Shown piece after piece: positions 7,555-38,733 of a stretch of DNA of 38,733 nucleotides; the stretch's first letter is position 1; the number at the start of each line of letters is the position of its first letter. Source of the DNA: a virus (taxonomy: Duplodnaviria > Heunggongvirae > Uroviricota > Caudoviricetes). The stretch is taken from the IMG/VR virus record IMGVR_UViG_2698536454_000017; one strand, written 5' to 3'. The notes beneath the pieces were generated by a model. The model was given only the letters and a program-made list of their open reading frames with translations, searched no databases and was not told the DNA's origin. A program made the translations under genes and the position numbers.

Positions 7555-7560
7555 TAACAC

Positions 7561-7941: not shown

Positions 7942-7975
7942 TGTAGAAAGACTGGATCAATCCACAGGAGTAATT

Positions 7976-10440: not shown

Positions 10441-10468
10441 TGACCATCTACATCACTGAGCTAATAAC

Positions 10469-10500: not shown

Positions 10501-10515
10501 GGGGGGGAGTAAATC

Positions 10516-15467: not shown

Positions 15468-15472
15468 AACAT

Positions 15473-15792: not shown

Positions 15793-15996
15793 ATGTACCG
15801 TATGGACAAAATCAGAGAATGGTTCAGTTACAGCTTCGGAGGACTGACTGCGATGGGTGGCATTCTCTCCCTGAATGACTGGGCTGTCATCATTGGTATT
15901 CTTTGTACTGTCGGCACATTTGGCATCAACTGGTACTACAAGCGCAAAGAGCGCGAGGACAGATTGAATGGCAATGTCACCGGCACTACGAAATAG
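15793..15996 (+). CDS. class II holin (pinholin-like, 67 aa, two TM segments)
   Basis: Hydrophobic segments and charged C-terminus; AAGGGG SD; immediately precedes a SAR endolysin as in phage 21. Confidence 0.65.
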
Positions 15997-16471: not shown

Positions 16472-16905
16472 GCAGAGTAACTGCGATTATCTCCGCTCTG
16501 GTTATCTGCATCATCGTCTGCCTGTCATGGGCTGTTAATCATTACCGTGATAACGCAATCGCCTACAAAGAGCAGCGCGATAAGGCCGCATCCACAATTG
16601 CTGACATGCAGAAGCGTCAACGTGATGTAGCAGAACTCGACGCCAGATACACAAAGGAGCTTGCTGATGCTAACGCGACTATCGAAAGCCTCCGTGCTGA
16701 TGTTTCTGCTGGTCGTAAGCGCCTGCAAGTCGCCGCCACCTGTGCAAAGTCAACGACCGGAGCCAGCAGCATGGGCGATGGAGAAAGCCCAAGACTTACA
16801 GCAGATGCTGAACTCAATTATTACCGTCTCAGAAGTGGAATCGACAGGATAACCGCGCAGGTTAACTACCTGCAGGAGTACATCAGGACTCAGTGCCTGA
16901 AATAA
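16468..16905 (+). CDS. Rz: i-spanin (Rz)
   Basis: N-terminal TM then coiled coil; ATG 16468 with GGGGG SD, ATGA overlap with endolysin stop. Confidence 0.7.
16667..16852 (+). CDS. Rz1: o-spanin (Rz1) embedded in +1 frame of Rz
   Basis: Lipobox LVVSAC followed by proline-rich segment; AAAGGAGC SD before ATG 16667. Confidence 0.6.
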
Positions 16906-22375: not shown

Positions 22376-22465
22376 TTAACCCATAACGTGCAATGGCTGT
22401 CTTTATGAGGCCTGGCACCCTATTGCCTTCCGATGGGCTGAACATCGAGTAAACAGGGGTAACAA

Positions 22466-23359
22466 ATGGACCAGATGGCAGAAAACACACCAGAAGTTGA
22501 AATCGAAACCGACGCGTCAGAGCAGATTCCTGATGATGTCGAACTGGCTGAAGAAGTCGAAACAGAAGATGGCAGTGAGTCCTCCGGCAATGATACAGAG
22601 GAAGCTACTGAAACTGATGACGACGAATCAGAGCAGGAATTCTACTTTGGTGACGAAAAGCTGGATTCGCCAACCAGCGAAGATGGCGCAGAGCATGGAC
22701 TGGTAAAACACCTGCGCAAGACGATTAAAGAGAAAGACCGCGAACTGAAAGAGCTGATGCGTCAGTCTCAGAAACCCGTCGAGCAGCAGCCGGTAATCAC
22801 TCAACCACCGCGAATGCCAAAACTGGATGATGAGGACATCGGTTTCGATGAAGAAATCTACCAGCAACGCATGGCTAAGTGGGCGGAGGACAACGGCAAA
22901 TACCAGCAACAGGAGATGGCTCGCAAGCAGAAGGAGCAGGAGCTTCAGGCTGCCTATCAAGAGCGATTATCCAAATATCAGCAACGTGTTAAGGCTCTCA
23001 AGGTTCCTGGCTATCAGGAAGCTGAACAGGCCGTACTCGAGGAAATCCCCATCGAGACACAAAACGCGATCCTGTTTGAGTCAGAGAAGCCGGAAATCGT
23101 TGTTCTGGCACTCGGTCGCAACGCTGAACTGCGCAAGCAACTGGCAGAAGCTACCAACCCCGTAGCAATTGGTCGTCTGCTGGAACGTATCGAATCGAAG
23201 GCCAGAATCATGCCAAAAGCAAAAACCACGGCAGCCACAACCCCGACAGTTAAGGGGAGCAACGGCGCAGTAATCAATAACCTCGACAAACTGAAAGCCA
23301 GGGCGCTGGAAACTGGTGACTGGACGCCGTATTTCGCCGCTAAAAAGGCAAAAAAATAA
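22466..23359 (+). CDS. scaffolding protein (P22 gp8-like)
   Basis: 297 aa acidic, helical/coiled-coil protein between portal and coat. Confidence 0.75.
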   Translation: MDQMAENTPEVEIETDASEQIPDDVELAEEVETEDGSESSGNDTEEATETDDDESEQEFYFGDEKLDSPTSEDGAEHGLVKHLRKTIKEKDRELKELMRQSQKPVEQQPVITQPPRMPKLDDEDIGFDEEIYQQRMAKWAEDNGKYQQQEMARKQKEQELQAAYQERLSKYQQRVKALKVPGYQEAEQAVLEEIPIETQNAILFESEKPEIVVLALGRNAELRKQLAEATNPVAIGRLLERIESKARIMPKAKTTAATTPTVKGSNGAVINNLDKLKARALETGDWTPYFAAKKAKK

Positions 23360-23377
23360 CCTATCGGAGCATTAAGC

Positions 23378-24631
23378 ATGGCTAACCAATTAGCAAAAGA
23401 CCTTGAAATCATGTTCGAAAACTACGTTGAAGGCTTTGAGGCCGCCTGCGTAGTTTCCCGTAACGCTAAAAAATTCCGTCCCGGTGATACAGCAATGCAG
23501 CGAGCAGGTGATGTTCTGTATCGTCCGCAGCATTACCACATGAACATTGAGGAAGGCCTCGACCTCAGCAGCAAAACGCCAACAGCACTGGTTCAGCGTC
23601 TTGTTCCTTCAGTGTTCAAGGAGCCGAAAAACATTCTGTACACTCTGGATGCGCGTGAAATGCGTGACCCTGAGCATAAAACTGAAGCTGGTCGCGCCGC
23701 AGGTATGCGCCTTGCTGCACAGATTGACTCTGACCTGATTTCCATGGTCACGCAGCGTGCTACTAACGTGATCACAATGGCTGACTCAAGCACTGGTTCA
23801 CAGGGCCGTGATTTGTGGAACTGTGCGGCAGGTATTGATGCCACCATGACGGCGATTGGTGTACCACAGGGTATCAACCGCCGCTCTTTCTGGAACCCCT
23901 TCAACTACAAAGACCTTGCTGGCGAGCTTGGTCACCGAGCCTACGCTCAGGGCGCAACCCTGACAGCATACGAAAAAGCGCAAATCCCTCCGGTTGCTTC
24001 CTTTGATAGCTACAAGACCGATATTTCTGGTCGATTACCGAAAGGAAGCACTGAATCCTTGACAGTATCAGGCCAACCTGAACACAAGGTTGAAGCGAAA
24101 GATTCAAATGGTATGCCAGTTGATAACCGACAGGGGACTATTACGGTATCTGCATCTGGCTTGCAGGTTGGTGATGCGTTCACCATTGCCGGTGTGAATT
24201 CCGTACACCAGATCACAAAAGATACCACCGGTCAACCGCAGGTATTCCGTGTTCTGGCTGTTAGCGGAACTACCGTAACAATTTCTCCAAAGATTCTCCC
24301 TGTTGAAAATACTGATGTTGCGAGTCGTCCATATGCAAACGTCGATGCCAAACCGGCAGAATCAGCAGCAATCACCATTCTCAACAAGAACGCAGCACCT
24401 GCTAACCTGTTCTGGGCTGATGGTTCTGTTGAGCTGATGTACGGCAAACTGGCGTTCCCGACTGGTCAGGGTCCACAGGTAATGACAGCAACCACCGAGC
24501 AGGGCGCTACGCTGATCATGTCTTACGCCTTCGACCACATCAAAGGCGTAACCACTGCTCGTTTCACCACTCTGTACGGTTGCTCTGTACTTGTTCCTGA
24601 ATATACGGGCATCGTTATTGCCGGGCAGTAA
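23378..24631 (+). CDS. major coat protein (P22 gp5-like)
   Basis: 417 aa; position and FWADGSVEL-type segments like P22 coat. Confidence 0.85.
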   Translation: MANQLAKDLEIMFENYVEGFEAACVVSRNAKKFRPGDTAMQRAGDVLYRPQHYHMNIEEGLDLSSKTPTALVQRLVPSVFKEPKNILYTLDAREMRDPEHKTEAGRAAGMRLAAQIDSDLISMVTQRATNVITMADSSTGSQGRDLWNCAAGIDATMTAIGVPQGINRRSFWNPFNYKDLAGELGHRAYAQGATLTAYEKAQIPPVASFDSYKTDISGRLPKGSTESLTVSGQPEHKVEAKDSNGMPVDNRQGTITVSASGLQVGDAFTIAGVNSVHQITKDTTGQPQVFRVLAVSGTTVTISPKILPVENTDVASRPYANVDAKPAESAAITILNKNAAPANLFWADGSVELMYGKLAFPTGQGPQVMTATTEQGATLIMSYAFDHIKGVTTARFTTLYGCSVLVPEYTGIVIAGQ

Positions 24632-24637
24632 TTTTGG

Positions 24638-24659
24638 TGGGGCTTCGGCCCCATTTTTA
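24638..24659 (+). terminator. rho-independent terminator after coat gene
   Basis: TGGGGC-TTCG-GCCCCA then TTTTTAT. Confidence 0.5.
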
Positions 24660-24672
24660 TTGGGAGAAGACA

Positions 24673-24861
24673 ATGGCACGAACAATGCTCTATAAACCTG
24701 GCAACATGATCACCTGTGGTCAGTTTGCTGTCGATTACATCATTGTTGATGACGAAGAAGTTAAATCTCACCTGAAAAAAGGCTGGGTAAAAACTCCTGA
24801 AGAAACCGCAACGAAGCAAAAAGTGGCTAAGGCGGAAGAAGATGGCGAAAACGAAGGGTGA
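24673..24861 (+). CDS. small hypothetical protein (62 aa)
   Basis: ATG 24673 with GGGAG SD 6 nt upstream. Confidence 0.4.
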   Translation: MARTMLYKPGNMITCGQFAVDYIIVDDEEVKSHLKKGWVKTPEETATKQKVAKAEEDGENEG

Positions 24862-25303
24862 TCTCGTTCTTAAGGCTTTACGAAAAGCCGGGCTGTATTC
24901 CAATGCCACGTTGACAGATGCCGACCCTCAGGCAATTGAAGATGCCATTAATGACCTCGAAGACATGATGGCAGCATGGCAGGCGAAAGGTATCGAGCTT
25001 GGATATCAGTTTGCGGATACAGAAAACGGCATCATGCCGTTACCTGACGATGATTCAGGTATCCCTGCATGGGCAAATGATGGCGTCGCTTTGAAGCTCG
25101 CTGTGCAAGTGTGCATGGATAACGTCATTCAGCCGTCAGACGCTCTCCTTACCGCTGCTGACAGTGCATATCAGACAATCTGCATCGCTTTAACCAAAAT
25201 ACCACCACTTGAGCGGCGAAATGACATGCCTCGCGGTAGTGGTAACAAAAGCGCGTTTACGTGGAATCGGTTTTACATCGAGAAAGATGATCCGAGTACG
25301 TGA
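24842..25303 (+). CDS. head-completion / tail accessory protein (P22 gp4-like)
   Basis: Synteny after coat; size 153 aa. Confidence 0.6.
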   Translation: MAKTKGDLVLKALRKAGLYSNATLTDADPQAIEDAINDLEDMMAAWQAKGIELGYQFADTENGIMPLPDDDSGIPAWANDGVALKLAVQVCMDNVIQPSDALLTAADSAYQTICIALTKIPPLERRNDMPRGSGNKSAFTWNRFYIEKDDPST

Positions 25304-25312
25304 GGTGAATAA

Positions 25313-26731
25313 ATGCCGATTCAGCAACTTCCGCTCATGAAAGGTGTCGGCAAAGACTTCCGAAATGCCGACTATATCGACTATCTGCCAGTGAATATGC
25401 TGGCTACACCCAAAGAAATCCTGAACAGCAGCGGATATCTTCGCTCATTCCCGGGCATTGCCAAACGTTCTGATGTGAACGGTATATCGCGCGGCGTCGA
25501 GTACAACATGGCGCAGAGTGCTGTTTATCGCGTGTGTGGTGGCAAGCTGTATAAGGGCGAAAGTGAAGTCGGTGATGTTGCCGGAAGTGGTCGTGTATCA
25601 ATGGCGCATGGTCGGACATCTCAGGCGGTAGGCGTTAATGGTCAACTGGTCGAGTATCGCTATGATGGCACGGTTAAAACCGTCTCAAACTGGCCTGCAG
25701 ACAGCGGATTTACGCAGTATGAGTTAGGTTCAGTCCGCGACATTACACGCTTACGTGGGCGTTATGCGTGGTCAAAAGACGGTACTGATTCATGGTTTAT
25801 CACTGACCTTGAAGACGAATCGCATCCTGACCGTTACAGCGCACAATATCGCGCAGAATCGCAGCCGGACGGCATCATCGGTATCGGGACATGGCGAGAC
25901 TTCATCGTCTGCTTTGGTTCATCGACGATTGAGTATTTTTCCCTGACTGGTGCAACCACCGTTGGTGCTGCTTTGTATGTCGCCCAGCCATCGCTGATGG
26001 TGCAGAAAGGCATTGCCGGAACTTACTGCAAAACGCCGTTTGCTGATTCCTATGCGTTTATCAGCAATCCGGCAACGGGTGCGCCGTCTGTATACATCAT
26101 CGGATCAGGTCAGGTATCACCAATCGCCAGCGCGAGCATTGAGAAAATCCTCCGCTCCTACACTGCTGATGAACTGGCTGATGGTGTGATGGAATCGCTG
26201 CGATTTGATGCTCATGAGTTGCTGATTATCCACCTTCCGCGCCATGTTCTCGTGTACGACGCATCTTCAAGCGCCAATGGTCCGCAATGGTGTGTACTGA
26301 AAACAGGTCTGTATGACGATGTGTACCGCGCTATCGACTTCATTTACGAAGGCAATCAGATAACGTGCGGCGATAAGCTGGAATCTGTTACCGGCAAATT
26401 GCAGTTCGATATCAGCAGCCAGTATGGGCTACAGCAAGAACACCTGTTGTTTACACCACTCTTCAAAGCTGAGAACGCCAGATGTTTTGATCTGGAAGTT
26501 GAATCATCGACTGGTGTCGCTCAGTACGCTGACCGCCTGTTCCTCTCTGCAACCACTGACGGCATCAACTGGGGACGTGAGCAGATGATTGAGCAGAATG
26601 AACCGTTCGTTTACGACAAGCGCGTTTTGTGGAAGCGTGTCGGGCGAATCAGGAAAAATGTCGGCTTCAAATTGCGCGTTATCACGAAGTCACCTGTCAC
26701 TCTGTCTGGCTGCCAGATAAGGATTGAGTAA
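25313..26731 (+). CDS. tail accessory protein (P22 gp10-like), 472 aa
   Basis: Synteny and identical length to recalled P22 gp10. Confidence 0.7.
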
Positions 26732-27579
26732 TGGCGGATTCATCACTGAATGATCCTGTCGCGGTTCAGGCTGCGCGCCTTGATGCTTCAATTTTGCCAC
26801 GCAATATATTCAGCCAGTCTTACCTGCTGTATGTCATAAATCAGGGTGCTGATGTTGGCGCAATTGCCGGGAAGGCAAATCAGGCTGGTCAGGGCGCTTA
26901 TGACGCGCAGGTAAGGAACGATGAGCAGGATGTGATTCTCGCTGACCATGAGCAGCGAATTTCTGCTGCGGAAGCAACGCTTGTTAATCATGAGGAGCGA
27001 ATCAGCCAGGCAGAATCAACTCTTCAGGAACATGAAACACGAATCACTAAGAATGAAAGCGATATTGCGTCGCTTGATACCAGAGTTCAGTCGCTGGAAT
27101 CGCAGGTTTCAGACCATGAAACGCGCATTGATGCTCTGGAGTATGCAACCACACGCAAGAAGTCAGAGGTTGTTTACTCTGGCGTATCTGTAACCATCCC
27201 GACAGCGCCGACCAACCTTGTTAGCCTGCTGAAAACGCTCACGCCGTCATCCGGCACGTTGGCACCATTCTTCGACACCGTTAACAACAAGATGGTTGTG
27301 TTCAACGAGAACAAAACCTTGTTCTTCAAGCTGTCGATCGTCGGGACGTGGCCCAGCGGAACCGCCAACAGGTCAATGCAACTAACATTTTCCGGCTCTG
27401 TTCCTGACACACTGGTAAGCAGTCGCAACTCGGCGACAACGACCGATAACATCCTGTTAGCTACGTTCTTCAGCGTGGATAAAGACGGATTTCTTGCCAC
27501 AAATGGCAGTACGTTAACCATTCAGTCGAATGGTGCGGCGTTTACTGCCACAACCATCAAGATAATCGCGGAGCAGTGA
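26731..27579 (+). CDS. tail needle (P22 gp26-like) with extended C-terminal knob
   Basis: N-terminus [68 protein letters not shown] matches recalled gp26; heptad-repeat coiled coil; 282 aa versus 233 in P22. Confidence 0.8.
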
Positions 27580-28034
27580 TGATTCAGTTCAAACCAACGC
27601 GAAACATCGACCTGATAGAAGCCGTGGGAAATCACCCCGACATTATCGCCGGGAGCAACAACGGTGATGGATACGACTACAAGCCTGAATGCCGTTACTT
27701 CGAGGTGAACGTGCACGGGCAGTTCGGCGGCATTGTTTACTATCAGGAGATTCAGCCTTTGACCTTTGATTGCCACGCCATGTACCTGCCAGAGGTTCGT
27801 GGATTCAGCAAGGAAATCGGGCTGGCGTTCTGGCGATACATTCTGACTAACACCACCGTTCAGTGCGTCACATCGTTCGCTGCGCGCAAATTCCGCCACG
27901 GTCAGATGTACTGCGCAATGATTGGCCTTAAGCGTGTAGGAACCATCAAGAAATACTTCAAAGGCGTGGATGACGTGACGTTTTACAGCGCAACACGCGA
28001 AGAACTAATCGACTTCCTGAATCACGGGAGATAG
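27579..28034 (+). CDS. P22 gp14-like assembly/ejection-associated protein
   Basis: Synteny (needle, 14, 7, 20, 16); ATG 27579 overlapping needle stop. Confidence 0.5.
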   Translation: MIQFKPTRNIDLIEAVGNHPDIIAGSNNGDGYDYKPECRYFEVNVHGQFGGIVYYQEIQPLTFDCHAMYLPEVRGFSKEIGLAFWRYILTNTTVQCVTSFAARKFRHGQMYCAMIGLKRVGTIKKYFKGVDDVTFYSATREELIDFLNHGR

Positions 28035-28036
28035 CC

Positions 28037-28729
28037 ATGTTATATGCATTTAAGCTGGGCAGAAAACTGCGCGGCGAGGAACCTTGGTGCCCTGAAAAAG
28101 GCGGGAAAGGTGGCTCCGATAAAAGCGCAAAGTATGCAGCAGAAGCTCAGAAGTATGCCGCAGACCTGCAAAATCAGCAGTTCAACACCATCATGAACAA
28201 CCTGAAGCTGTTTACTCCTCTGGCTGATAAGTATGTCGGCAGCCTCGAGAACTTATCGTCTCTGGAAGGGCAAGGTCAGGCACTTAACCAGTATTACAAC
28301 TCTCAGCAGTACAAAGATCTTGCTGGTCAGGCTCGCTATCAGAGTCTGGCGGCAGCGGAAGCAACAGGTGGATTGGGTTCCACTGCAACCGGTAATCAGT
28401 TAGCAACAATCGCACCAACGCTTGGTCAGCAATGGCTATCTGGTCAGATGAACAACTACCAGAATCTGGCAAATATTGGTCTTGGCGCACTGCAAGGTCA
28501 GGCAAACGCCGGGCAGACATATGCCAACAACATGAGTCAGATTTCGCAGCAAAGTGCGGCTCTTGCAGCGGCAAATGCCAACAGACCATCAGCAATGCAA
28601 TCTGCTATTGGCGGAGGTGCGTCTGGTGCTATTGCTGGGGCTGGACTTGCGAAATTAATTGGTTCATCAACTCCGTGGGGTGCTGGTATCGGTGCTGGTA
28701 TCGGTCTGCTTGGTTCACTGCTTTATTAA
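28037..28729 (+). CDS. ejection protein (P22 gp7-like)
   Basis: Synteny; 230 aa; Q/A/G-rich with C-terminal glycine-zipper membrane segment. Confidence 0.6.
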   Translation: MLYAFKLGRKLRGEEPWCPEKGGKGGSDKSAKYAAEAQKYAADLQNQQFNTIMNNLKLFTPLADKYVGSLENLSSLEGQGQALNQYYNSQQYKDLAGQARYQSLAAAEATGGLGSTATGNQLATIAPTLGQQWLSGQMNNYQNLANIGLGALQGQANAGQTYANNMSQISQQSAALAAANANRPSAMQSAIGGGASGAIAGAGLAKLIGSSTPWGAGIGAGIGLLGSLLY

Positions 28730-28739
28730 GGGGTAATCA

Positions 28740-30155
28740 ATGGCTACGTGGCAACAGGGTATTAATTCTGGTGGTTTTCTGGCTGGCATCGGTACGCAAA
28801 ATGAGAATGCGCCAAAGGCAAGCGACATTAACGCAACGCTTGGTCTGATCCGCGAAAACAATGAACTGGCTCGCTCAGGTGCAAATAACGTTGGTCTGAC
28901 CGCGTTACGTGGTCTGGCTGGAGTTGCTGATATTTACAATCAGGAACAGCAACAGAAAGCGATTAGTGCGTTCAATAAGGTTCACGCTGATGCATGGGCT
29001 TCTGGTGATCCATCGGGACTATTTAAGTTTGCCAAGGAAAATCCAGCGTTTGTTGCGCAGGCACAACAGGCGTTTTCCGGTCTTAATGAGCAGCAACGCA
29101 ACGATATGGGCGATTTAGCCATGAGGGCTAACGTCGCTCTTTCTCAGGGACCGGAAGCCTACAGTAAATTCATTACTGACAACAAGGACAGGTTAAATCG
29201 CGTTGGTGCTAATGCTGACTGGATGATTCAGACAGGTATCCAGAATCCAGAGCAGCTATCACACATGCTGACTACTATGTCTCTCGGTGCTCTTGGACCA
29301 GAAAAGGCGTTTGCTGTTCAGGATAAGATGGCTGGTCGTGAAATTGACCGAGGCAGGCTGGCAGAGACAATCCGCAGCAATCAGGCTGGCGAGGCACTTC
29401 AGGCGAGAGGGCAAAACCTTTCCTATCAGTCAGCAATGACTGGGCACAATATCGCAGCACAACGCTTGGCTCTGGATCAGCAAGAGTTCGGGTTTAAGAT
29501 GCAGCAAGCGCAGGAAAAGGCTCAGCAGTTGATTAGCGAAGCACCTAAGCTGTCAGTAAATATGGAAAAAGGCATCGAGACGGCTGTAAACAATGCCACA
29601 GCATCATCAAACTCAGCCAATTCCATGAGTGCGCTTGCTCAACAGTTCAGAGCAGAAAAACCAACGACAGGTTTGTTCGGTAACGCACAGAACATGTTCG
29701 CAAAACTTACCGGAAGCGATACGACATTGCGTGATTTGCGCATTCGCCAAAATGCCCTTGTTAACAGTCAGGTTCTTAAATTCCTACCTCCCGGCCCAGC
29801 AACGGATAAAGACGTTGAGATCGTTCGACAGGGTGCGCCAACTGACATGGATAACCCTGAGACGGTCGCAAGATGGCTTGATGCAATGGCAAACCTTGAG
29901 CGACGAAACGCGCAGTTTAATGAGTTTAAAGCCGAGTGGATGAGCGCGAATGGCAACCCTGGACAATCGCGTAATGGCGGTCAGATATTGGGGTTGGATG
30001 TTAAAAAAGGTGAATCATTGGGGAGTGCCGTTAAGCGGTATATGTCAATGAATACTGACGCAGCGCCAGCACAAGATTCGACACCTTCAGGAGAACCACG
30101 GAATCAGGTTGGATCATATACATCAAAATCAGGCATTCAATTTACGGTGGAATGA
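28740..30155 (+). CDS. ejection protein (P22 gp20-like), 471 aa
   Basis: Synteny and identical length to recalled P22 gp20. Confidence 0.65.
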
Positions 30156-32158
30156 TGAAAGTAACTGCAAACGGTAAGACATTTACCTTTCCTGATGGTA
30201 CGAGCACCGAAGATATTGGCACCGCCATTGATGAGTATTTTGCTGGTCAGTCAGCACCAACACAACAAGGTGTTCAGCAATCGCCAGCAGACAACTCACT
30301 TGCATCAGGATATGCACAGCTTGCCACTCAGCAGAAGGAAGGACTAGATCGCTCTGCTGAGCAAGGGGCTGTTTTAGGTGCTGCAATGCGCGATGCCGTT
30401 ACCGGTGAAAGCCGAATGACACCAGAAATGGAGAGACTGCAAAATGTTGGGTCTGCTCCAGAGCTTAATAGCTTAAGCACTGATGCGCTGCGTGCTGGAT
30501 TGGGGCAGCTATTTGGTTCCGACGCTTCACAGGAGAAAATACTGCAAAGTATTGGCGGGAAAATCCGGAAGGATGAGAAGGGAAATTCCATAGTCACCCT
30601 TCCTTCAGGGGAATATGCACTTAACAAGCCTGGTTTGTCACCGCAGGATATAACGTCATTCTTGGCAAATGCTCTTGCATTCACTCCAGCAGGTAGAGCT
30701 GCGTCTGTTGTAGGTGCAACACTAAAATCAGGCGCTACTGATTTAGCTTTACAGGGGGCCACTAAGATCGCTGGCGGTGAGAATGTTAATCCAGTTCAAA
30801 CTGCAATTTCTGCTGGTCTTGGTGGGGTACTGAAGGGTGTAGAAAACACCGCAAGCGCAGTGTCTCGTTCTGCTATGGGTAATATTGCTCCTGAAAAACA
30901 AGCTCAGATTGACTTTGCCAAGCAGAACAACTTGCCACTGATGACAACAGATCTTGTGGAACCGGGAACAAATATTGGTAAGCAAGCACGAGCTATGGCT
31001 GAGCGAATCCCAATAGCCGGAACAGGTGGGATAAGAAATGCACAGCAAAAGGCCAGGGAAGATTTAGTTAGAACATTTAGCGATAATGTTGGTGGAATAT
31101 CTGACGCACAACTTTACCAATCAGCTACTCGTGGTCAGCAGCAATTTATTCAGGCTGCTGGCAAGCGGTACGACAGGATCATCAGTTTGATGGGGGATAC
31201 TCCTGTTGACATCACTGGAACAGTGAAAGCAATTGATGAGCAGATTTCCAAGTTAACTCGCCCAGGAGTATCGCAAGACCGCTCAGCTGTTTCTGTCCTT
31301 CAACAGTTTAGAAATGACATCACCAGCGGTCCAAATAACCTGCAATTAGCTAGAGAAAACCGTACAAACTTACGTAAGCGATTTATGGCAGCACCTGACG
31401 AGGTCGATAGAGATACGCTGGAGAAAGCTGCGCAGTCTGTTTATAACGCATACACAACAGACATGAAAAAAGCGGTTGGCGCAAAACTAGGTGCGAAGGA
31501 AGCGCAAAACATGTCGCGTGTTGATCGTTCTTGGGCAAAGTTCAACGACATGATGAGCAATACACGTGTCCAAAAAGCTATTCAGAGTGGTAAAACAACG
31601 CCAGAAGATGTCACTAAACTAGTATTTAGCCAAAGCCCAGCGGAAAGGGCGCAACTTTATCGATTGCTTGATGATAGTGGGCGTCAAAATGCTAGAGCAG
31701 CACTTGTTCAGCGTGCAATGGATAAGGCGACAAGCGATTCAGGAAAGCTTAGCGTTGAGAAGTTTATTAATGAAATGAAAAGGAATCGGAAGCAGGCTGA
31801 GACGTTCTTCAGAGGAGAGCATGGGAAACAGCTTGATGGGATAATGAAATATCTTGATTCCACTAGACAGGCAGCTACTGCTGCCGCAAGCCCACTAACA
31901 GGGCAAATGGTAGCTGGTCCAGCAGCGCTGATAACAGCTCTTGCGTCTGTTACAAATCCAATGTTTGCAAAAGTTGCGGCAGTTGGAGCTGGTATCGGTA
32001 TGGCTGGCAGGGGCTATGAGTCACGCGCGATGAGGAACGCATTACTAAAGTTAGCAAACACACCAAAAGGAAGTACTGCTTATGATAGAGCGATCAGACG
32101 GGTATCTGAAACTCTTACACCTCTAATTCAGGCTTCAAGTGAGAAAGCCCAGCAGTAA
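30152..32158 (+). CDS. ejection protein (P22 gp16-like), 668 aa
   Basis: Synteny; large A/G/Q-rich protein preceding tailspike region. Confidence 0.65.
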
Positions 32159-32166
32159 AAAGTTGG

Positions 32167-32487
32167 TTAGCGGTTGATGGTTGCTTTTTTCGGGTCATAC
32201 CATCTCGGCCATTCTTTCAGGAATGGGAATGAGTCGGGTGCGTGGTTCTTTTTGTACGATTTAAGCAGCCTTAACCGCTCAATCGCACACTCATAAACCT
32301 CTTGTTGCCCTGTAGTCATCTCGGTCCATGAAAGGTGATCCATTGATAAGACAACGTTTTCAGCTTCTTTTATGAGGGCGTTTTTATTTCTCACCGCAGC
32401 AGCATGGCTGACAGAGCAATCCTGCCATATTCTTAAAAGCCAAATAGCTAAGCAGATGAAAAAAATGGTAGATAGCGATATATACAC
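32167..32487 (-). CDS. small membrane-anchored protein (about 106 aa; start uncertain)
   Basis: GTG 32487..32485 with AAGGAGG SD 5 nt upstream; N-terminal TM helix YISLSTIFFICLAIWLL; longer ORF-track version would overlap the divergent gene. Confidence 0.4.
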   Translation of the reverse strand: MYISLSTIFFICLAIWLLRIWQDCSVSHAAAVRNKNALIKEAENVVLSMDHLSWTEMTTGQQEVYECAIERLRLLKSYKKNHAPDSFPFLKEWPRWYDPKKATINR

Positions 32488-32517
32488 ACCAACCTCCTTA
32501 GTTTTGAGCAGGATACC

Positions 32518-32883
32518 ATGAAAAAAGTTAACATTGGAAACGTACCAAAGATGCTCGTTCCGCTCTTTGAGAGCGGTACAATTGTGTTTTGTAGAGACTT
32601 TCCAGAATGGCAACGCCTGCATCAAAAACTTGGCGTTGACGTGCATGACTCTGACGCCAACGGAGCGTCTCATACAATGAGTAGCGAGAATGGTGTTTTG
32701 CATGTGATAGGCGTGTTCAATGGCAAACTATCTACTATTGCCCATGAGTGCGCTCACATGGCATTCGATATCTGCTCAAGGGTAGGTGTTGATGTTGAAC
32801 CAGGAAGAGCCAACGAGACTTACTGCTACTTAATGAGCAGGCTTGTTGAGTTCTGCGAGCGACATATCAAAAAGCCGGAGTGA
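32518..32883 (+). CDS. small HExxH-motif protein (putative Zn-metallopeptidase-like, 121 aa)
   Basis: STIAHECAHMAFD motif with downstream Glu (EPGRANETY); ATG 32518. Confidence 0.5.
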   Translation: MKKVNIGNVPKMLVPLFESGTIVFCRDFPEWQRLHQKLGVDVHDSDANGASHTMSSENGVLHVIGVFNGKLSTIAHECAHMAFDICSRVGVDVEPGRANETYCYLMSRLVEFCERHIKKPE

Positions 32884-32896
32884 ACCGGCTTGATTA

Positions 32897-33076
32897 TTAC
32901 TTTTTGCTGTCTGGAGTTCGCTTATCCAATACCCAGCCATGACCTGGCTTTGTTGTTGGTGGAAGCCTTTCGTTGTCCTTGACGGTGGCAAAATTGTCTT
33001 TCTTACCGCCGCGCGGGCCAACTTCTTGGTATATTCCGCCGTTTTTTCCTGTGTTTTCACCTGGTTTTTTCGCCAT
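32897..33076 (-). CDS. small Lys/Gly-rich hydrophilic protein (59 aa)
   Basis: ATG 33076..33074 with GAGGT SD 5 nt upstream; MAKKPGENTGKNGGIYQEVGPRGGKKDNFATVKDNERL... Confidence 0.4.
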   Translation of the reverse strand: MAKKPGENTGKNGGIYQEVGPRGGKKDNFATVKDNERLPPTTKPGHGWVLDKRTPDSKK

Positions 33077-33237
33077 GATATACCTCAACACACACCCGTT
33101 ATTGGGCGATTAAATATTGATCTCATTTTATAAGTAGTCAATATGGTCTTGGTAATGTCAAAAATTAACCAATCGTCATCTGGGGTATCCATAAAAACCC
33201 TTCAGTACATAACTACTGACAGATAACCAACGCAACG

Positions 33238-33261
33238 ACCCAGGTTCGGCTGGGTTTTTTT
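33238..33261 (+). terminator. rho-independent terminator upstream of tailspike
   Basis: ACCCAG-GTTCGG-CTGGGT followed by T7. Confidence 0.5.
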
Positions 33262-33319
33262 ATGCCCAAAATTCACCGTAGCCATGCTGCGGCCATTCCT
33301 TGTATCTGGAGCAAATCAA

Positions 33320-35563
33320 ATGACAGATTCAATAAATGCCAATGTTGTAGTGAGTATGCCTTCGCAACTCTTCACTATGGCTCGTTCTTTTAAAGCTGTA
33401 GCCAATGGCAAAATTTATATCGGTAAAATTGACACTGACCCGGTAAATCCTGAAAACCAGATTCAGGTTTATGTGGAGAACGAAGACGGTTCTCACGTTC
33501 CTGTTTCGCAACCAATCATCATTAACGCTGCTGGTTATCCGGTATATAACGGACAGATTGCCAAATTCGTAACTGAGCAAGGCCATTCTATGGCTGTTTA
33601 TGATGCGTATGGTGCACAGCAGTTCAAATTCCCAAATGTGCTGAAGTATGACCCTGACCAACTCAGGCAAGATCTTGCATCTCAAGGAGGTGTTAATCTG
33701 GTAAACGGAGCTATCTCACAGGAAGATCTTGTTTTGCAGTCGATCACAAAAATTCCAAGTTATGATAATTCTAACGTAGTCCAGGCATGGCGCGATAGTG
33801 TTGCGACCTACGGGTATGTTTACTTCTCTAATCATTCAAAAAATCAGATGGTGTACACCGTACCGTCTACAGCTGCTAACGCTTCTTTCCTTGCGAACAG
33901 TAAAGTAATCATTGATAAAAATGTCACCCTGAGATTCGACAGTGATCTGTACTCACTGTTTAAATCGTTGCAGTACGAGGGGGAGGGTACGTTTGAATTT
34001 ACGCACCTGAACTTTAAAGCAACCGGTGGAGAAGTGGATTACCTGGCTAAGCAGGCCATCCTCAACCGAAACCCTATTCGCATGAAGCGAGTGGAATGGT
34101 CAGATTGTAAAGTTTATTCCATAAATGGTGACACGTTCTTCTATGAAGGTGAAGTCACCATATCCTCAGATAGCGCAGCTATCTTCCCCTTAACTACTAA
34201 CCGTACAACAGGCCTGTTCGCACCAATAGATATTGGAGAGCATATTTCTGCACATATTCGCATGGAATCTCAGGCCGCCTCAGAAGTTGGGATTGTTCTG
34301 CGATGCTCTGGTGGTTGGATGATGTTCTATGGGGCACCAGGTGCTACACAGTGGTCTTATAGACAGAAACCAATTGGTGGTCCAGTAGCAGAAGGAACCC
34401 CATTCCCGCTGCCAGGAGGTTTACTGTCGTACGCCCCGGGCAAAGCAACCGTTGGCGTATCACTGCAAGGTAAAAACTGGGCGCAGATAACGATGAATGG
34501 CGTTGGGATACGTTTGCCCTTTGATACTGGTGATGTAGGGGATGTATACGAAGTTGGGTTTGTTGCACTGACCCCGGCATCTGGAGGTGCTGCGCGTGTA
34601 ACTGGATTATGCAGCTACACCTCTGATAATGGCGTGCACGGTAAGCCTCCACTTAATATCCTTATCCACGGGGATAGTACAGCTGAGGATTTCATTTCCG
34701 CGTTCAGCTCGTACATTCCGCAATTAATGGATGGAGCGAACGGCCACCGTTCATATAGCATTGTAAACAAGGCAGTTGCCGGACAGACAATGAGGCAACA
34801 GTTAGATCTCCTGAAGGCTCAGGGGCCGGGTGATGCTTACATCGTTATTATGGTTGCCGGAACTAACGAAGGGCAGGCAAACCAAAACGGCGATTATATG
34901 GCGTCACTGATAGATGAGTTTGTCTTATATTGCAATGGCCTTGGTCGTATCCCTGTTTGGGTTGAGCCGTGGATGTGGTATAGCCAGTCATTTATTGGCG
35001 GTGCTGGTCAACCATCAGCAAATTACGATGGTGTTGCGGAGTTGCGCGAGGCTGGTAAACGCCAGATGATGAAATATGGCAATAACGTCATTTGTGTAAC
35101 AACAACTCACCAGCTCCCGGCCCCATATCCAGAGTATTTCAACACGCAATACGACCCACTTCTGCGTGATGACATTCACCAAAGCCAGTTAGGGTATCGT
35201 CTGTATGCGGAAATTATCTGCTCTGCCATTATCGACTGGTGGTCGCGTGTTGATTACACGCCAAGAGCAGCTGTTCAATGGTGGGCTGGAACAAACGTAA
35301 CAGTACAGGCACCGTCAAGTTTAACTGCCAATTCAATTAATATTAAACTGGCAGCCACTTCATTTGCGAATGGCAATACTGTTCTAACGCTTCCGAGGTG
35401 GTGCAGACCAAAAGTAACCAAAAATGTCCCTGTACCGTTCACTGCTGATGGCGTTTCATTTGGCATGGCAATGGCCACCATTAATGCTTCAACAGGACAA
35501 ATATCGATTGAAGGGTCCACAACTACATCTCCAACGTTCTACATAGATGCGACATGGGCGTGA
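33320..35563 (+). CDS. tailspike: P22-type head-binding N-terminal domain fused to an SGNH/GDSL esterase receptor domain
   Basis: N-terminus [60 protein letters not shown] matches recalled P22 gp9 residues 1-120; SGNH blocks [19 protein letters not shown]. Confidence 0.85.
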
Positions 35564-35665
35564 TCGTTAAAAATATGCCATAGATATAATCAATTACAGC
35601 CAACCATATATGGTTAAAATGTGTATGATAAACTCTCCAACTAAGGAGGTTATTATGCACAATAG

Positions 35666-36082
35666 ATGGTGGTCACTATGGCAACCACGCTGACAACGGA
35701 GTCACTTAATCAGGGGCTTAGCCTTGGTGCGCTGGCTTCCGTTGTTGCCGGGGTTCCTCCTGAAGTAGCGTTAGGTGCTCTTGCTGGCGCGGTAATTTTT
35801 GTTACCTCGGCAGTTGAGTACCCAATAAAACGGCGGCTGCTCCTGGCTATTCTCAGCTTCCTCTGCGGAGTTCTCTTCTACAAAGCGACAGCATCAATTC
35901 TCATCGGTGTTGCCAGCCTTATACCAACGATCACGCAGGATTCTTTTGAGAAGGGCATTGTGTTTTCTGCCGGTGCTTTCGTATCAGCAATCGTTGCTGT
36001 CCGCATTGGTATCTGGCTGTATCACAGCTCTGAAAATCCGCGCGACCTTATCCCGGGGAGAAAAGACGATGGCCAGTCCTGA
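35666..36082 (+). CDS. holin-like membrane protein (138 aa, 3-4 TM segments)
   Basis: Hydrophobic helices; first gene of a holin/endolysin/spanin cluster; start 35666 or 35678. Confidence 0.5.
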   Translation: MVVTMATTLTTESLNQGLSLGALASVVAGVPPEVALGALAGAVIFVTSAVEYPIKRRLLLAILSFLCGVLFYKATASILIGVASLIPTITQDSFEKGIVFSAGAFVSAIVAVRIGIWLYHSSENPRDLIPGRKDDGQS

Positions 36083-36362
36083 GCTACTTCTCATCCTGAA
36101 CGCCGCAATCTGCGGCGGAATTGCAATCAGAGTCCTGCTGTTCCGTCGTGGAGGGTCACGCCATCGCTGGTGGGGCGGGTGGCTGGCTTACCTTCTTATT
36201 GTCTCTGCTGCCAGCGTGCCTATTCGTACTTTTTACGGGCATTACATATGCGCAGATTGGTCAGAAATCATCATCAAAGCCGTGTTCCTGGCAGCCCTTA
36301 TCAAGACAAAAGGGAACGTGGTGCAAATTTTCAAGATAACGAGGTCTCAGCATGGACATTAA
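36069..36362 (+). CDS. second small membrane protein (97 aa; holin/antiholin-like)
   Basis: ATG 36069 with GGGGAG SD; 2-3 TM segments; overlaps neighbours by a few codons. Confidence 0.45.
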
Positions 36363-36981
36363 ACAATTCCAGCGAGCTGCAGGTATTAGCGAGGCGCTGG
36401 CCGCTCGCTGGTTCTCGCATATAACTTCTGCGATGAAAGAGTTTGGTATCAGCAAAGCAGAAGATCAGGCAATGTTTATTGCTCAAGTCGGGCATGAGTC
36501 TGGTGGCTTCACCAGGTTGCAGGAGAATTTCAACTACAGCGTCACAGGACTGGCTAACTTTGTTCGGGCAGGACGTCTCACTCAGGGACAGGCCAACGCA
36601 CTGGGTCGCCGTGCTGGTGAACCACCATTGCCACTCGAGCGCCAGCGCGCGATCGCAAATCTGGTGTACAGCAAACGCATGGGTAACAATGCCCCAGGCG
36701 ATGGCTGGAATTACCGTGGGCGCGGACTTATCCAGATTACCGGTTTGAATAACTATCGTGACTGCGGAAACGGCCTGAAAGTGGACCTGCTGGAGAATCC
36801 TGAACTGCTGGCGCAGGACGAATATGCGGCCCGCAGCGCGGCTTGGTTCTTCGCCACAAAAGGCTGCATGAAGTACACCGGCGACATGGTGCGCGTCACG
36901 CAGATCATCAATGGCGGGCAGAACGGCATCGACGACCGGCGTGCGCGTTACATCACTGCCAGTAAGGTGCTGGCGGTATGA
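36352..36981 (+). CDS. GH19 (chitinase class I-like) endolysin
   Basis: [12 protein letters not shown] and [13 protein letters not shown] motifs characteristic of GH19 phage endolysins. Confidence 0.8.
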
Positions 36982-37466
36982 TCTGGGCATTCGTGAAAGC
37001 GTACTGGAAACCGTTGCTTATCGTGGTGATGCTTGCTGCTTTGGTTGCTGGATGCCGTATCGCCTGGGTGAATCATGGTGAAACTCAGTACGCCGCAGGA
37101 TACGCGCAGGCACAGTCAGACCAGAAACAGGCTGATGATAAGGCCAGGTCACAACGTGATCAGGAGAAGACACAAATTGAACATGAAGCACAATCTCGTA
37201 TCGATGTGGCGCGCGTTGATGCTGAGCATGCTAATACCGCTGCTGACGGCCTGCGCGCCGAGCTTGACAAAACCAAGCGACTCGCCGAACACTATACCGG
37301 ATCTTTCCCCGCTGGCACGCCAGCCAGCAAGGTCATCGGTGTGCTCGCCGACATGCTTGAAGAAAGCAACCGAGCTTACATCGCAGCAGCAGAAGAGGCT
37401 GAGCGATATCGGTCTGCAGGACTCACATGCGAGCGACAGTATGACTCCCTGAAAACGGGGTACTGA
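36978..37466 (+). CDS. i-spanin (Rz-like)
   Basis: N-terminal TM ([13 protein letters not shown]) then coiled coil; ATGA overlap with endolysin. Confidence 0.6.
37183..37452 (+). CDS. o-spanin (Rz1-like) embedded in Rz-like gene
   Basis: Signal peptide with lipobox LLTAC followed by Pro-rich segment, in alternate frame wholly inside 36978-37466; start codon uncertain. Confidence 0.5.
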   Translation: MKHNLVSMWRALMLSMLIPLLTACAPSLTKPSDSPNTIPDLSPLARQPARSSVCSPTCLKKATELTSQQQKRLSDIGLQDSHASDSMTP

Positions 37467-37594
37467 TTTCCGGTGACGGTATATAAAACGGTACGGTGAA
37501 AATCAGGATTCAGAAAGTTGTTATCAGTCAATTGGTTATGCATGTCGTAAATAATTGAGTGGGAATGATTTTAATCCCTGCACTATGAATGAAC

Positions 37595-37624
37595 AAAACC
37601 CTCTGTTACTACAGAGGGTTTTTT
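37595..37624. terminator. bidirectional rho-independent terminator between convergent genes
   Basis: AAAA-CCCTCTGT-TACT-ACAGAGGG-TTTTTT. Confidence 0.6.
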
Positions 37625-37662
37625 ATCTTCAAGAATCATAGGCTTGAAGTTACTAACATCGA

Positions 37663-38202
37663 TTAATTAAACCAGCTGTCCGATTTGTTCTCTTCTGCTT
37701 TGCCCACGCTTTTCATCAGATCGCGACCGCCTTCAGTCATATTTCTGTTGGCGTCAGCTTCAGATTGCACCACATCGGTTTGCGCAGCTTTGTGCTTCAG
37801 TTCCTGATCGATAAATTCGTTTTCTCGCTTAACGCGGGCTTCTTCTTTTGCCAGCGCCAGTTTTTGTTTCTGAATCTCTAAGCTGCGTAGCTCATCTTCA
37901 TAACTTTGATCGCGTTTTTTGTCCGCAGAGGCTTCGGCGTCCAGTTTATCCTGACGAGCTTTCTTATTTGCCGCTGCCGTTGCCGCTCTTTTGTTAGCGG
38001 CGGCCTGGGCATTTGCGCGACGTTGCTTCTCTTGCTGGATTTCCCTGTTGCGCTCCGCGACCCATTCGTCATGCTGCCTTTGCTCTTCATTTTTACCTTG
38101 CTGTTCAGCTTCTGCTACAGCAGAGAGTTGATCCTGCAATGATGAGGCGATAGCCGGATAGCTTAAGGAGGCCAAGATGGCGCAAAGAAAAACTTTCTTC
38201 AT
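37663..38202 (-). CDS. secreted coiled-coil protein (179 aa, signal peptide)
   Basis: Signal peptide MKKVFLCAILASLSYPAIA; K/E/Q/A-rich helical body; AGGAGG SD. Confidence 0.5.
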   Translation of the reverse strand: MKKVFLCAILASLSYPAIASSLQDQLSAVAEAEQQGKNEEQRQHDEWVAERNREIQQEKQRRANAQAAANKRAATAAANKKARQDKLDAEASADKKRDQSYEDELRSLEIQKQKLALAKEEARVKRENEFIDQELKHKAAQTDVVQSEADANRNMTEGGRDLMKSVGKAEENKSDSWFN

Positions 38203-38217
38203 GACTCCTCCTGATTA

Positions 38218-38733
38218 TTAGCTCTTTTCAGGACATTTAGTATTTGGCTGAATACGCGTTTCGTTATACGTTGTGGTAATAACAACGGCTAAACCTGTCG
38301 TAAACTGGCACTCTTTACCCACCTGGGTAGAGGTATACACTTTGGTGCCTTCCTTATATGTTAAAGAAACACCTTCCACTAAGGTTTTATCATTCACCAT
38401 AGAACCCACTGCCGCGCCTACAGCTCCGCCGCCAACTGCCCCTGCCGTCGTTCCGGAATTGCTGCCAGAACCGACGTTGTGGCCGATAACACCGCCAGCG
38501 ACTGCGCCAATAAGCGCGCCGAAGGCTTGTGCGTTCCGTTTATTTTGGGAGTTGTCTACGGCAACTTTTGCGGGAAGAATGGAAATAATATTAACGGTTT
38601 TAGTTTCTTGTTTGGTATTCAGTTGATCGGTTTGATAAACATCGGCGGCATGATCGTCAGCATTTGACTGGCATCCTGCCAGAGTGAATGACGCTAACAT
38701 TGCCACAGGCAGAAGACATTTTTTAAATTTCAT
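38218..38733 (-). CDS. lipoprotein with glycine-zipper segment (171 aa); start codon is the last 3 nt of the window
   Basis: Lipobox FTLAGC; GALIGAVAGGVIGHNVGSG glycine-zipper-like stretch. Confidence 0.55.
   Translation of the reverse strand: MKFKKCLLPVAMLASFTLAGCQSNADDHAADVYQTDQLNTKQETKTVNIISILPAKVAVDNSQNKRNAQAFGALIGAVAGGVIGHNVGSGSNSGTTAGAVGGGAVGAAVGSMVNDKTLVEGVSLTYKEGTKVYTSTQVGKECQFTTGLAVVITTTYNETRIQPNTKCPEKS

Follow-up and report, generated by a model that had tools for sequence, protein, structure and literature searches.

The right end of an epsilon15/phiV10-type prophage as the likely source of a second lysis cassette downstream of a P22-like tailspike

The lysis genes of phiV10 (NC_007804), epsilon15 (NC_004775), Tyrion and SPN1S, which are phages of the Uetakevirus type, are preceded by a common leader and followed by a common 17-bp att core, and the attB of these phages is the 3′ end of guaA. 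Downstream of the cassette, phiV10, epsilon15 and Tyrion have a terminator, attP and int, a 15-mer of the att core being located between Rz and int, and an opposite-strand O-antigen modification gene lies between their tail fibre and the cassette. The core, attgagtgggaatgatt, has been published for phiV10, epsilon15 and vB_EcoP_ZX5 (PMC9782041). On overexpression of its repressor, a relative shows a drop of more than 99.9% in the transcripts of holin and endolysin (PMC9782041).

The same leader, gene order, Pfam/PHROG families and att core are found in a stretch of 38,733 nucleotides (the window), the larger, left part of which is P22-like. In the window and in a subset of E. coli prophages, it is the tailspike gene that is positioned directly upstream of the cassette, with a spacer of 114 bp, rather than the O-antigen modification gene. 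The original prediction took this cassette either for the edge of an adjacent prophage or remnant, or for a second lysis module, acquired and separately regulated. This raises two questions. First, to which phage does the cassette belong? Second, how did it come to be adjacent to a P22-like tailspike? Regarding the first question, we propose, with a probability of roughly 0.85, that the cassette is the right arm of a Uetakevirus-type prophage, joined to P22-like DNA within a tailspike segment shared by both phages.

Composition of the cassette and its leader

Pfam, PHROGs and hydropathy bear out the set of proteins that had been predicted downstream of the tailspike: 35678–37466, on the plus strand, codes for two holins, a GH19 endolysin and a spanin pair, Rz with Rz1 embedded in it. 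The first gene (35678–36082) encodes a 134-aa holin-like membrane protein of the epsilon15 gp23/phiV10 p27 type, with matches to Phage_holin_8 (PF16931, E = 1e-11) and to the holin family phrog_198 (E = 5e-38) and with three to four hydrophobic segments by hydropathy. Its start, which had been placed at 35666, has to be moved to the conserved ATG at 35678, the ATG at 35666 being missing in the relatives. The second holin (36069–36362, 97 aa) belongs to Phage_holin_3_7 (PF05449, E = 4.6e-25) and phrog_217. The 209-aa endolysin (36352–36981; Glyco_hydro_19, PF00182) matches the SPN1S endolysin structure, PDB 4OK7, with E = 7e-118, and the hydropathy of the 209-aa protein reveals no signal or SAR segment and no hydrophobic segment; in the contig collection, 52 blocks list the identical protein. 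The Rz-like i-spanin (36978–37466, 162 aa; DUF2514, PF10721, E = 4e-23; phrog_312) has an N-terminal TM segment. In its +1 frame lies an Rz1-like o-spanin lipoprotein (37183–37452) with the lipobox LLTAC, which matches the Rz-like spanin family phrog_11621 (E = 2e-28), and the same Rz1-like gene is embedded in Rz of phiV10 and epsilon15.

With membrane holins, a signal-less soluble endolysin, a TM i-spanin and a lipobox o-spanin all present, 35678–37466 has the features of a canonical holin–endolysin–spanin system, whose mode of action we infer from the gene families. Once the holins had made the inner membrane permeable, the GH19 endolysin, which is cytoplasmic and of the SPN1S type, would gain access to the murein and cut it, and the Rz/Rz1 complex would disrupt the outer membrane.

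The P22-like phage has a lysis cassette of its own on the plus strand (15793–16905), with its Q at 14813–15301. That cassette comprises a class II holin (Phage_holin_2_3), a GH24 lysozyme (Phage_lysozyme) with a hydrophobic N-terminus, and Rz with an embedded Rz1. Since the families differ (Phage_holin_2_3/GH24 versus Phage_holin_8/Phage_holin_3_7/GH19), the two cassettes are unrelated, in agreement with the original description of the second one as non-homologous.

The spacer and leader of the second cassette (35564–35677, plus strand, 114 bp) contain a perfect 14-bp palindrome, AACCATATATGGTT, at 35602–35615, an SD sequence, AAGGAGG, at 35643–35649, 5 nt ahead of the ATG at 35655, and a 12-codon uORF, MHNRWWSLWQPR, at 35655–35693 (stop 35691–35693) that overlaps the first lysis gene. 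All these elements are located exactly where they had been reported. The TATAAT that had been read as a −10-like element is also in its place on the plus strand (35585–35590) but fails as a promoter: a sigma-70 scan gives two sites against 2.3 expected, neither of them uses the TATAAT, and it does not stand above chance. An SD-sequestering hairpin is predicted for the leader (−27.8 kcal/mol, z = −4.0), as is a consensus hairpin; covariation shows a double change in only 1 of 24 pairs, the sequences being too conserved to inform. In the epsilon15 record, the equivalent stretch is annotated as an RNase III site.

Such a strongly conserved, well-folding leader might be expected of a moron-like second lysis module, gained downstream of gene 9 along with a promoter, a palindromic operator and a leader peptide of its own, and the position is indeed one where P22-like phages hold accessory genes (gtrABC, oac or humD). 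However, the leader of the window is conserved in phiV10, epsilon15 and Tyrion from 35602 on, and the palindrome, the SD sequence and the uORF ATG are kept in these three phages and in related prophages. By its sequence, it is a generic Uetakevirus leader with nothing specific to the window. Downstream of the tailspike, the P22-like relatives examined have oac/humD/intS or intS directly, and the cassette was found in none of them, so that the comparison with P22-like genomes proposed along with the original prediction turns out against an acquired module with its own regulation. Furthermore, the att sequence bordering the cassette is the Uetakevirus core and not the argW site that belongs to the IntS of this phage, and the epsilon15-like continuity starts inside the tailspike, not at the cassette, and runs via the attR arm and the core to 37570. 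A moron is therefore very improbable. With its palindrome, SD-sequestering hairpin and short uORF, the Uetakevirus lysis leader is more conserved than the downstream genes.

The right end of the prophage at guaA

From 35602/35604 to about 37570, the cassette aligns with the type phages over 72–91% coverage at 76–82% nucleotide identity. The cassette ends 87 bp upstream of the att core. These 87 bp (37467–37553, plus strand) are the phage-derived arm of attR: they match phage and prophage records, are absent from prophage-free E. coli, and correspond to a stretch of the epsilon15 record with Int and IHF sites. The 17-bp core itself (37554–37570, plus strand) represents the last codons and the stop of guaA, displaced to attR. 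Prophage-free genomes match the window only from 37554, whereas phage genomes match it up to about 37570. Beyond the core, the sequence is that of the host, with the guaA/yfgI intergenic terminator hairpin (37595–37622; 100% identical to prophage-free E. coli) followed by two minus-strand genes annotated in RefSeq, yfgI (37663–38202; Pfam DUF5384) and yfgH (38218–38733; Pfam glycine-zipper), the latter cut by the window end.

The region 35564–37570 thus reads, in order, leader, holin, holin, GH19 endolysin, Rz/Rz1, attR arm and 17-bp core, with yfgI and yfgH beyond, and is the native right end of a prophage of the epsilon15/phiV10 type that has inserted into guaA at its 3′ end. Among 5426 complete E. 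coli genomes, 163 have the same cassette at the end of a complete epsilon15-like prophage beside yfgI, and so do many draft genomes; the prophages of NADC1036 (L038) and of strain 602687 are further examples at guaA/yfgI. The closest one (L010/L121; E. coli GCA_012584095.1) is 100% identical to the window over 35564–38733 and has a single mismatch over 34275–35563, with the same host context and att core; its tailspike has 800 aa and an N-terminus of the Uetakevirus type, and the remainder of this prophage is epsilon15-like. The cassette is the standard Uetakevirus lysis module in its standard place rather than a new P22-like module.

A prophage edge had been expected between 35563 and 35666, where an att repeat would cleanly delimit a separate neighbouring element. 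In its favour, the palindrome at 35602–35615 is the point where most Uetakevirus genomes begin to resemble the window. That point is, however, a module boundary within the Uetakeviruses, upstream of which phiV10, epsilon15, Tyrion and one prophage (L001) have the opposite-strand O-antigen modification gene. A scan of the window found no att repeat in 35563–35666, no direct repeat of the palindrome and no copy there of either att core, and prophages with the same tailspike continue across this interval at 100% identity, as L010/L121 does over 35564–35677. A boundary at this place is hardly credible. The att core occurs as a single copy within the window, and the only att element that a search for att sites brings out is the epsilon15-like attR, whose core at 37554–37570 lies downstream of the cassette. 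The idea of a prophage edge therefore holds in that the cassette is a prophage right arm at guaA/yfgI; it does not hold for the boundary, as the epsilon15-like element takes in 35564–35677 and also the tailspike from about 34399 on. As a by-product, the precise attR of a guaA-integrating element is located inside the window.

Only the right arm of this element is visible in the window, and all of its four or five ORFs are intact, which would also be the picture left by an old epsilon15-like prophage stranded beside yfgI, with the cassette kept by the host. Such domestication is most unlikely, given that every other genome examined with the cassette has a full-length prophage upstream, that the cassette is 100% identical to that of an intact prophage and hence gives no sign of independent evolution, and that the join to P22-like DNA is located in homologous sequence and is not a deletion scar. 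We therefore retain the right arm of a Uetakevirus-type prophage as the source of the cassette.

The change of phage within the tailspike gene

The tailspike gene is called in the source assembly, GCA_001283365.1, as a 747-aa protein (33320–35563, plus strand) within a 759-aa ORF that starts at 33284; the exact look-up of the 759-aa ORF gave no match since the call starts at the internal ATG. The exact protein, CTV01250.1, is a singleton present in one contig. Its N-terminus (33329–33661) is a P22-type head-binding domain (Pfam Head_binding, E = 2.5e-63). The receptor-binding part is SGNH/GDSL-esterase-like, with a weak match to Lipase_GDSL_2 (E = 0.0014), and homologues bear the RefSeq name SGNH/GDSL hydrolase.

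P22-like prophages match the window over 33268/33305–35557 and diverge thereafter, and epsilon15-like prophages match it from 33905 on. The segment common to both (33905–35557, plus strand) comprises the receptor-binding part, is near-identical over its last 1.28 kb, and provides the substrate for the join. Within it, all 32 diagnostic sites of 33991–34274 carry the allele of a P22-like prophage at argW (L036), with zero mismatch to the window in the mapped stretch 33000–34299, whereas sites 34399, 34530, 34589, 34672, 34774, 34904 and 35521 carry the epsilon15-like allele of L009/L010. Site 35044 again has the P22-like allele. The diagnostic-site map hence places the switch in 34275–34398 (plus strand), and the change from P22-like to epsilon15-like phage falls within the tailspike gene, not at 35563–35666. 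In the near-identical stretch, epsilon15-like alleles stand at seven of eight diagnostic sites, in contrast to the P22-like left branch. Real recombination gives a single clean switch, and the pattern observed is not one predicted by simple coverage-driven misassembly. Epsilon15-like alleles such as L003 carry P22-type SNPs at 34048–34274, from which it follows that exchange between the two lineages occurs in nature.

The origin of the join

The prophage L036 (also L024; E. coli GCA_001283505.1) is a sister of the P22-like phage of the window, located at argW. It has the same gene layout, with 99.92% identity over 25–10614 and 98.9% over 20155–35557, and a tailspike of 746 aa. In contrast to the window, it bears P22-type alleles at 34399–35521, and past 35557 it continues into intS–argW–yfdC, not into a lysis cassette. 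Its xis end adjoins cscB/dsdA, and a look-up of the left-most complete protein of the window gave only relatives at argW/csc. The window begins at position 3 of the source contig, CYCS01000008.1, the left end of the prophage being off the contig. An exact 50-mer scan of IMG/VR found one near-identical contig, just 499 bp longer, that extends into ordinary lambdoid early-left sequence.

The other end of the source contig is informative as well. Beyond the guaA core, the contig runs for 146,186 bp, and in the closest complete genome (with an identical host flank of 9,913 bp) the distance from the guaA att to argW is 144.7 kb; the contig would thus end, on the side of csc, about 1.5 kb into an argW occupant and would stop some 1 kb short of where the window itself begins. 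This placement at argW, inferred from the sister genome and the contig geometry, assumes that there are no large indels relative to strain 602687. The strain is probably doubly lysogenic, carrying the P22-like prophage at argW and, some 145 kb away, the epsilon15-like one at guaA. In another sample, a Logan contig with the identical cassette and flank starts at the equivalent of 35528, one k-mer before the branch at 35557, as expected when two tailspike copies co-reside in one strain.

In such a strain, the adjacency may well have arisen through joining by the assembler across the shared tailspike repeat, which is near-identical over 1.3 kb, and we incline, without great confidence, to this reading. 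The alternative, to which we assign a smaller yet appreciable chance, is that the fusion is physically real, owing to homologous recombination in the shared tailspike segment between a P22-like genome and a resident epsilon15-like prophage. It might take the form of a Campbell-type cointegrate made without integrase, of a tandem duplication, some 184 kb long, between the prophages, or of a viable hybrid phage, and P22 late transcripts would then extend beyond the tailspike into another complete lysis cassette. Several observations favour a real fusion. The alleles switch once and cleanly, between 34274 and 34399; the window contains zero Ns; a scan of the interval from the tailspike stop to the holin found no convincing terminator; the recombination functions Erf and Abc are encoded in the P22-like part; the L003-type alleles attest exchange between the lineages in nature; and a repeat with two ways in and two ways out should not be joined by standard scaffolders. 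On the other hand, both the singleton protein and the arrangement are confined to one contig, with no P22-like plus cassette hybrid among 5426 complete E. coli genomes, GenBank phages and 80 IMG/VR loci, and site 35044 returns to the P22 allele. The contig geometry points to a prophage end at argW, which fits a double lysogen, and in a double lysogen the junction would require a 184-kb duplication or a circle; a cointegrate predicts instead an empty argW without a contig break there.

For a hybrid with an epsilon15-type int, a further crossover would be required; the sole shared sequence found, ead/Ea22 (window 2–139, about 90% identical), lies in the opposite orientation to the tailspike, and a double-crossover hybrid through it was set aside. 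An inversion of the chromosome between the two prophages is likewise rejected, as the tailspikes at argW and guaA are in direct orientation.

More tentative still is a physical join via the shared tailspike by integrase-independent integration or a large duplication, with the Q-antiterminated late operon entering the second cassette. If this were the case, one induction would fire two lysis systems, and a real fusion of any form would offer a tidy natural case of prophage–prophage recombination through a receptor-binding module. Nevertheless, a repeat common to two prophages gives the best account of what looks like one phage with two lysis cassettes. A provirus call that runs from the contig end to yfgH should be taken with caution, given that it bundles parts of two phages.

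By way of the sister prophage at argW, the P22-like part of the window compares with the IntS–TorI system of the KplE1/HK620/Sf6 type. Tailspike modules are exchanged among podoviruses, including P22, Sf6, HK620, epsilon15 and others, in which lineage-specific N-terminal adaptors are combined with an interchangeable receptor-binding part. The window has the same layout, the module here being the SGNH/GDSL-esterase-like segment 33905–35557. P22-like and Uetakevirus-like E. coli prophages thus share a near-identical, SNP-mosaic tailspike module of the SGNH type, and at 97–99.9% identity between two co-circulating lineages it is a hotspot of real recombination and misassembly alike.

Two lysis cassettes and the leader of the second

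The window carries two complete lysis cassettes that are non-homologous to each other. In the P22-like phage's own cassette (15793–16905), a class II holin and Rz/Rz1 accompany a GH24 lysozyme whose N-terminus is hydrophobic. The gene for the antiterminator Q lies upstream of this cassette, and so do two tRNA genes, tRNA-Asn (GTT) and tRNA-Thr (TGT), which together occupy 15393–15548, after Q and before the holin. The second cassette, encoded on the plus strand and assigned by Pfam and PHROGs, is composed of a 134-aa Phage_holin_8 protein (35678–36082), a 97-aa Phage_holin_3_7 protein (36069–36362), a 209-aa GH19 endolysin without a signal or SAR segment (36352–36981), a 162-aa Rz-like DUF2514 protein (36978–37466) and, embedded in the Rz-like gene, an 89-aa Rz1-like lipoprotein (37183–37452) with the lipobox LLTAC. 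Together with the match of the endolysin to the solved SPN1S endolysin 4OK7 (E=7e-118), these families confirm the original prediction of a second, non-homologous lysis cassette downstream of the tailspike. The start of its first gene, placed there at 35666, has to be moved to the conserved start at 35678, as the 35666 ATG is missing in relatives. Judging from the families, the two holins would build up in the inner membrane and then trigger, the soluble GH19 endolysin would thereupon escape and degrade the murein, and the outer membrane would finally be removed by Rz, a type II membrane protein, and Rz1, an outer-membrane lipoprotein. In prophages that carry this tailspike, a spacer of 114 bp with no convincing terminator leads from it into the cassette, which is probably co-transcribed with the late genes. 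In a relative, overexpression of the phage repressor reduces the holin and endolysin transcripts by >99.9% (PMC9782041).

Upstream of the cassette, a TATAAT (35585–35590), the perfect palindrome AACCATATATGGTT (35602–35615), an AAGGAGG (35643–35649) 5 nt upstream of the ATG at 35655, and the 12-codon upstream ORF (uORF) that opens at this ATG and ends at 35693 are all present as first described. The TATAAT had also been taken as -10-like, which the promoter scan does not support: it gave two promoter-like sites versus 2.3 expected, neither with the TATAAT. From the palindrome up to the first start, the sequence hardly varies among epsilon15 (Salmonella), phiV10 (E. coli), Tyrion (Enterobacter) and related prophages, and its conservation exceeds that of the coding sequence. 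Across 16 distinct leader sequences (window plus 23 loci), neither the SD nor the uORF ATG varies; the uORF has 12 codons in most leaders and 6 in phiV10. RNA folding predicts that the SD is buried in a hairpin (−27.8 kcal/mol, z=−4.0), and the epsilon15 record labels the equivalent stretch as a predicted RNase III site; a double change is seen in one of the 24 hairpin pairs, the sequences being too alike for covariation. The Uetakevirus leader at 35602–35693, present also in L002, L013, L014 and ~20 other loci, comprises the CCATATATGG palindrome, a predicted SD-sequestering hairpin and a short uORF overlapping the start of the first gene. The match to the window begins at ~35600 in 43 of the 80 best IMG/VR loci, the same point where most relatives begin resembling the window, and 32 of these 80 match from ~35700 only, thus without the leader. 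Such a leader is generic to the genus; the window has no regulatory novelty here.

Junction within the tailspike gene

The window is 100% identical over 26352–38733 to its source contig CYCS01000008.1 (GCA_001283365.1) and begins at contig position 3. The sister P22-like prophage in E. coli GCA_001283505.1 shows 99.92% identity to window 25–10614 and 98.9% over 20155–35557. This KplE1/HK620-type element at argW has its xis end beside cscB/dsdA, and intS, argW and yfdC come after its tailspike. A 363-aa TnpB/IS605 OrfB-type (Cas12f-like) gene, shared by several argW prophages, lies at 3085–4176 on the minus strand of the window, in the early-left operon of the P22-like phage, with erf on one side and the kil/cIII region on the other.

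P22-like prophages at other loci match 33268/33305–35557 and diverge afterwards, and epsilon15-like prophages of draft genomes match the window unbroken from 33905 to 38733. The P22-like (argW) and epsilon15-like (guaA) podophage lineages are unrelated and share a 1.65-kb SGNH/GDSL-esterase-like tailspike segment (33905–35557; loci L003, L009, L010 and L036) with 97–99.9% identity. In one P22-like prophage with this esterase-type tailspike (L027 8285–10613, strain SRY149), the tailspike is separated from intS by an acyltransferase gene and then a gene of humD type; the acyltransferase and the tailspike are possibly an O-antigen acetylase paired with a deacetylating tailspike.

In a site-by-site allele comparison with the sister locus L036 and the epsilon15-like prophages, the window proved P22-type at 32 of 32 diagnostic sites in 33991–34274, and epsilon15-type at 34399, 34530, 34589, 34672, 34774, 34904, 35521 and everywhere beyond. 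The sole later site with a P22-type base, 35044, has the same base in some epsilon15-like alleles. L010/L121, the epsilon15-like loci at guaA/yfgI of E. coli GCA_012584095.1, are 100% identical to the window over 35564–38733, with one mismatch in 34275–35563. Since the alleles are P22-type up to 34274 and epsilon15-type from 34399, the switch lies in 34275–34398, not in the spacer at 35563–35666 where the boundary had been expected. On this allele evidence, the junction is a homologous switch in the receptor-binding segment common to both lineages. The SNP patterns of the shared segment are themselves mosaic, as in the epsilon15-like allele L003 with P22-type bases at 34048–34274, and suggest that the segment has been exchanged repeatedly between the two lineages.

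Contig join or physical recombinant

We favor, with a probability of roughly 55–60%, an in-silico join across the collapsed repeat as the origin of the P22-like/cassette adjacency. The chimeric 747-aa tailspike CTV01250.1 is found on one contig only, the arrangement occurs in none of the 5426 complete E. coli genomes or the 80 best IMG/VR endolysin matches, the two parents differ at only eight sites over the last 1.28 kb, and a Logan contig from a different sample, in which cassette and flank are identical, starts at the equivalent of 35528. In this contig (L123, ERR4783697_13), position 1 lies one k-mer before the branch at 35557, and the sequence is identical over 35564–38733. A break there implies that the strain has two copies of the tailspike, which can therefore co-reside. 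Against a join, there is one clean allele switch, and a P22-type left branch with epsilon15-type repeat bases differs from the prediction of coverage-driven collapse; moreover, scaffolders normally refuse 2-in/2-out joins. A physical recombinant is thus a serious, though less probable, alternative.

Checks of orientation against the sister loci L024 and L036 and against strain 602687 show that the P22-like and epsilon15-like tailspikes are direct repeats. In the window direction, the order is guaA, the epsilon15-like prophage (int ... tailspike, lysis) and yfgI ... cscB, followed by the P22-like prophage (xis ... tailspike, intS) and argW. The path "P22 tailspike N-terminus, lysis, yfgI" between direct repeats is a tandem duplication, an excised circle or assembler cycling. 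The left end of the prophage is absent from the source contig, and its location at argW here rests on geometry. The contig continues 146,186 bp past the guaA core. The closest complete genome, NZ_CP189657.1, agrees with the contig at 9,913 of 9,913 flank bases. It also harbours an epsilon15-like prophage with this tailspike, and has an empty argW and a core-to-argW distance of 144.7 kb. Therefore, the contig is expected to reach ~1.5 kb past the csc-side border of an element at argW, and its end would fall in the xis/DUF551/ead region of a P22-like prophage, ~1 kb short of the window's first base. An end so close to the window start argues that the P22-like prophage is at argW in the source strain too and that the contig is the cycle path.

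Both the window and the contig start inside an ead/Ea22-like gene (window 1–139). Epsilon15-like prophages carry ead/Ea22 and DUF4752 genes, and that of strain NADC1036 (L038, 29906–30043) is ~90% identical over 138 bp, inverted. This similarity is a likely cause of the contig break and a potential further recombination substrate between both phage types.

The guaA attachment site and the Uetakevirus lysis region

Prophage-free E. coli match the window from 37554 only, within the last guaA codons, and the match of phage genomes ends at ~37570. The overlap, attgagtgggaatgatt, is present in a single copy in the window, and in phiV10, epsilon15 and Tyrion this core has Rz on one side and int on the other. 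The same sequence has been published as the att core of three phages that integrate at the guaA 3′ end, phiV10, epsilon15 and vB_EcoP_ZX5 (PMC9782041). Therefore, attR is at 37554–37570, downstream of the cassette, and the cassette belongs within a guaA-integrating element.

The cassette directly adjoins yfgI-yfgH in 163 of the 5426 complete E. coli genomes, and in CP8-3 and NADC1036 it ends a full epsilon15-like prophage whose integrase adjoins guaA. The exact endolysin protein occurs in 52 blocks of a public contig collection; at nine of the ten places listed, it comes after an 800-aa tailspike, or after an uncalled gap of equal size, behind epsilon15-type virion genes. The NADC1036 prophage was deposited twice, in the chromosome (NZ_CP076264.1 2,789,668–2,828,059) and as the separate 38,709-bp NZ_CP076267.1. 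The separate 38.7-kb record would fit a circular copy that had excised spontaneously, and a relative spontaneously releases 10^7 PFU/mL (PMC9782041).

Of the two readings in the original prediction, the edge of an adjacent prophage was correct in substance, the cassette being an epsilon15-like right end, and incorrect on the boundary, which is inside the tailspike. The other, an acquired second module with its own regulation, is not upheld, since the leader is generic to the genus and the cassette is inside a guaA-integrating element.

In a search of GenBank phages, 35602/35604 to ~37570 matched the lysis regions of Uetakevirus phages, including Tyrion, phiV10, epsilon15, SPN1S and TL-2011b, with 76–82% identity. 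In phiV10, epsilon15 and Tyrion, an O-antigen modification gene of opposite orientation comes after the tail fibre, followed by a membrane protein, holin, endolysin and Rz/Rz1, and then by a terminator, the attP region and the integrase. With the cassette before attP and the integrase in these phages, it is therefore the last block ahead of attR in the prophage. Whether the junction is a contig join or a physical recombinant, the cassette is not a P22-like module; it is of an already known kind, the Uetakevirus lysis cassette at the guaA att site.
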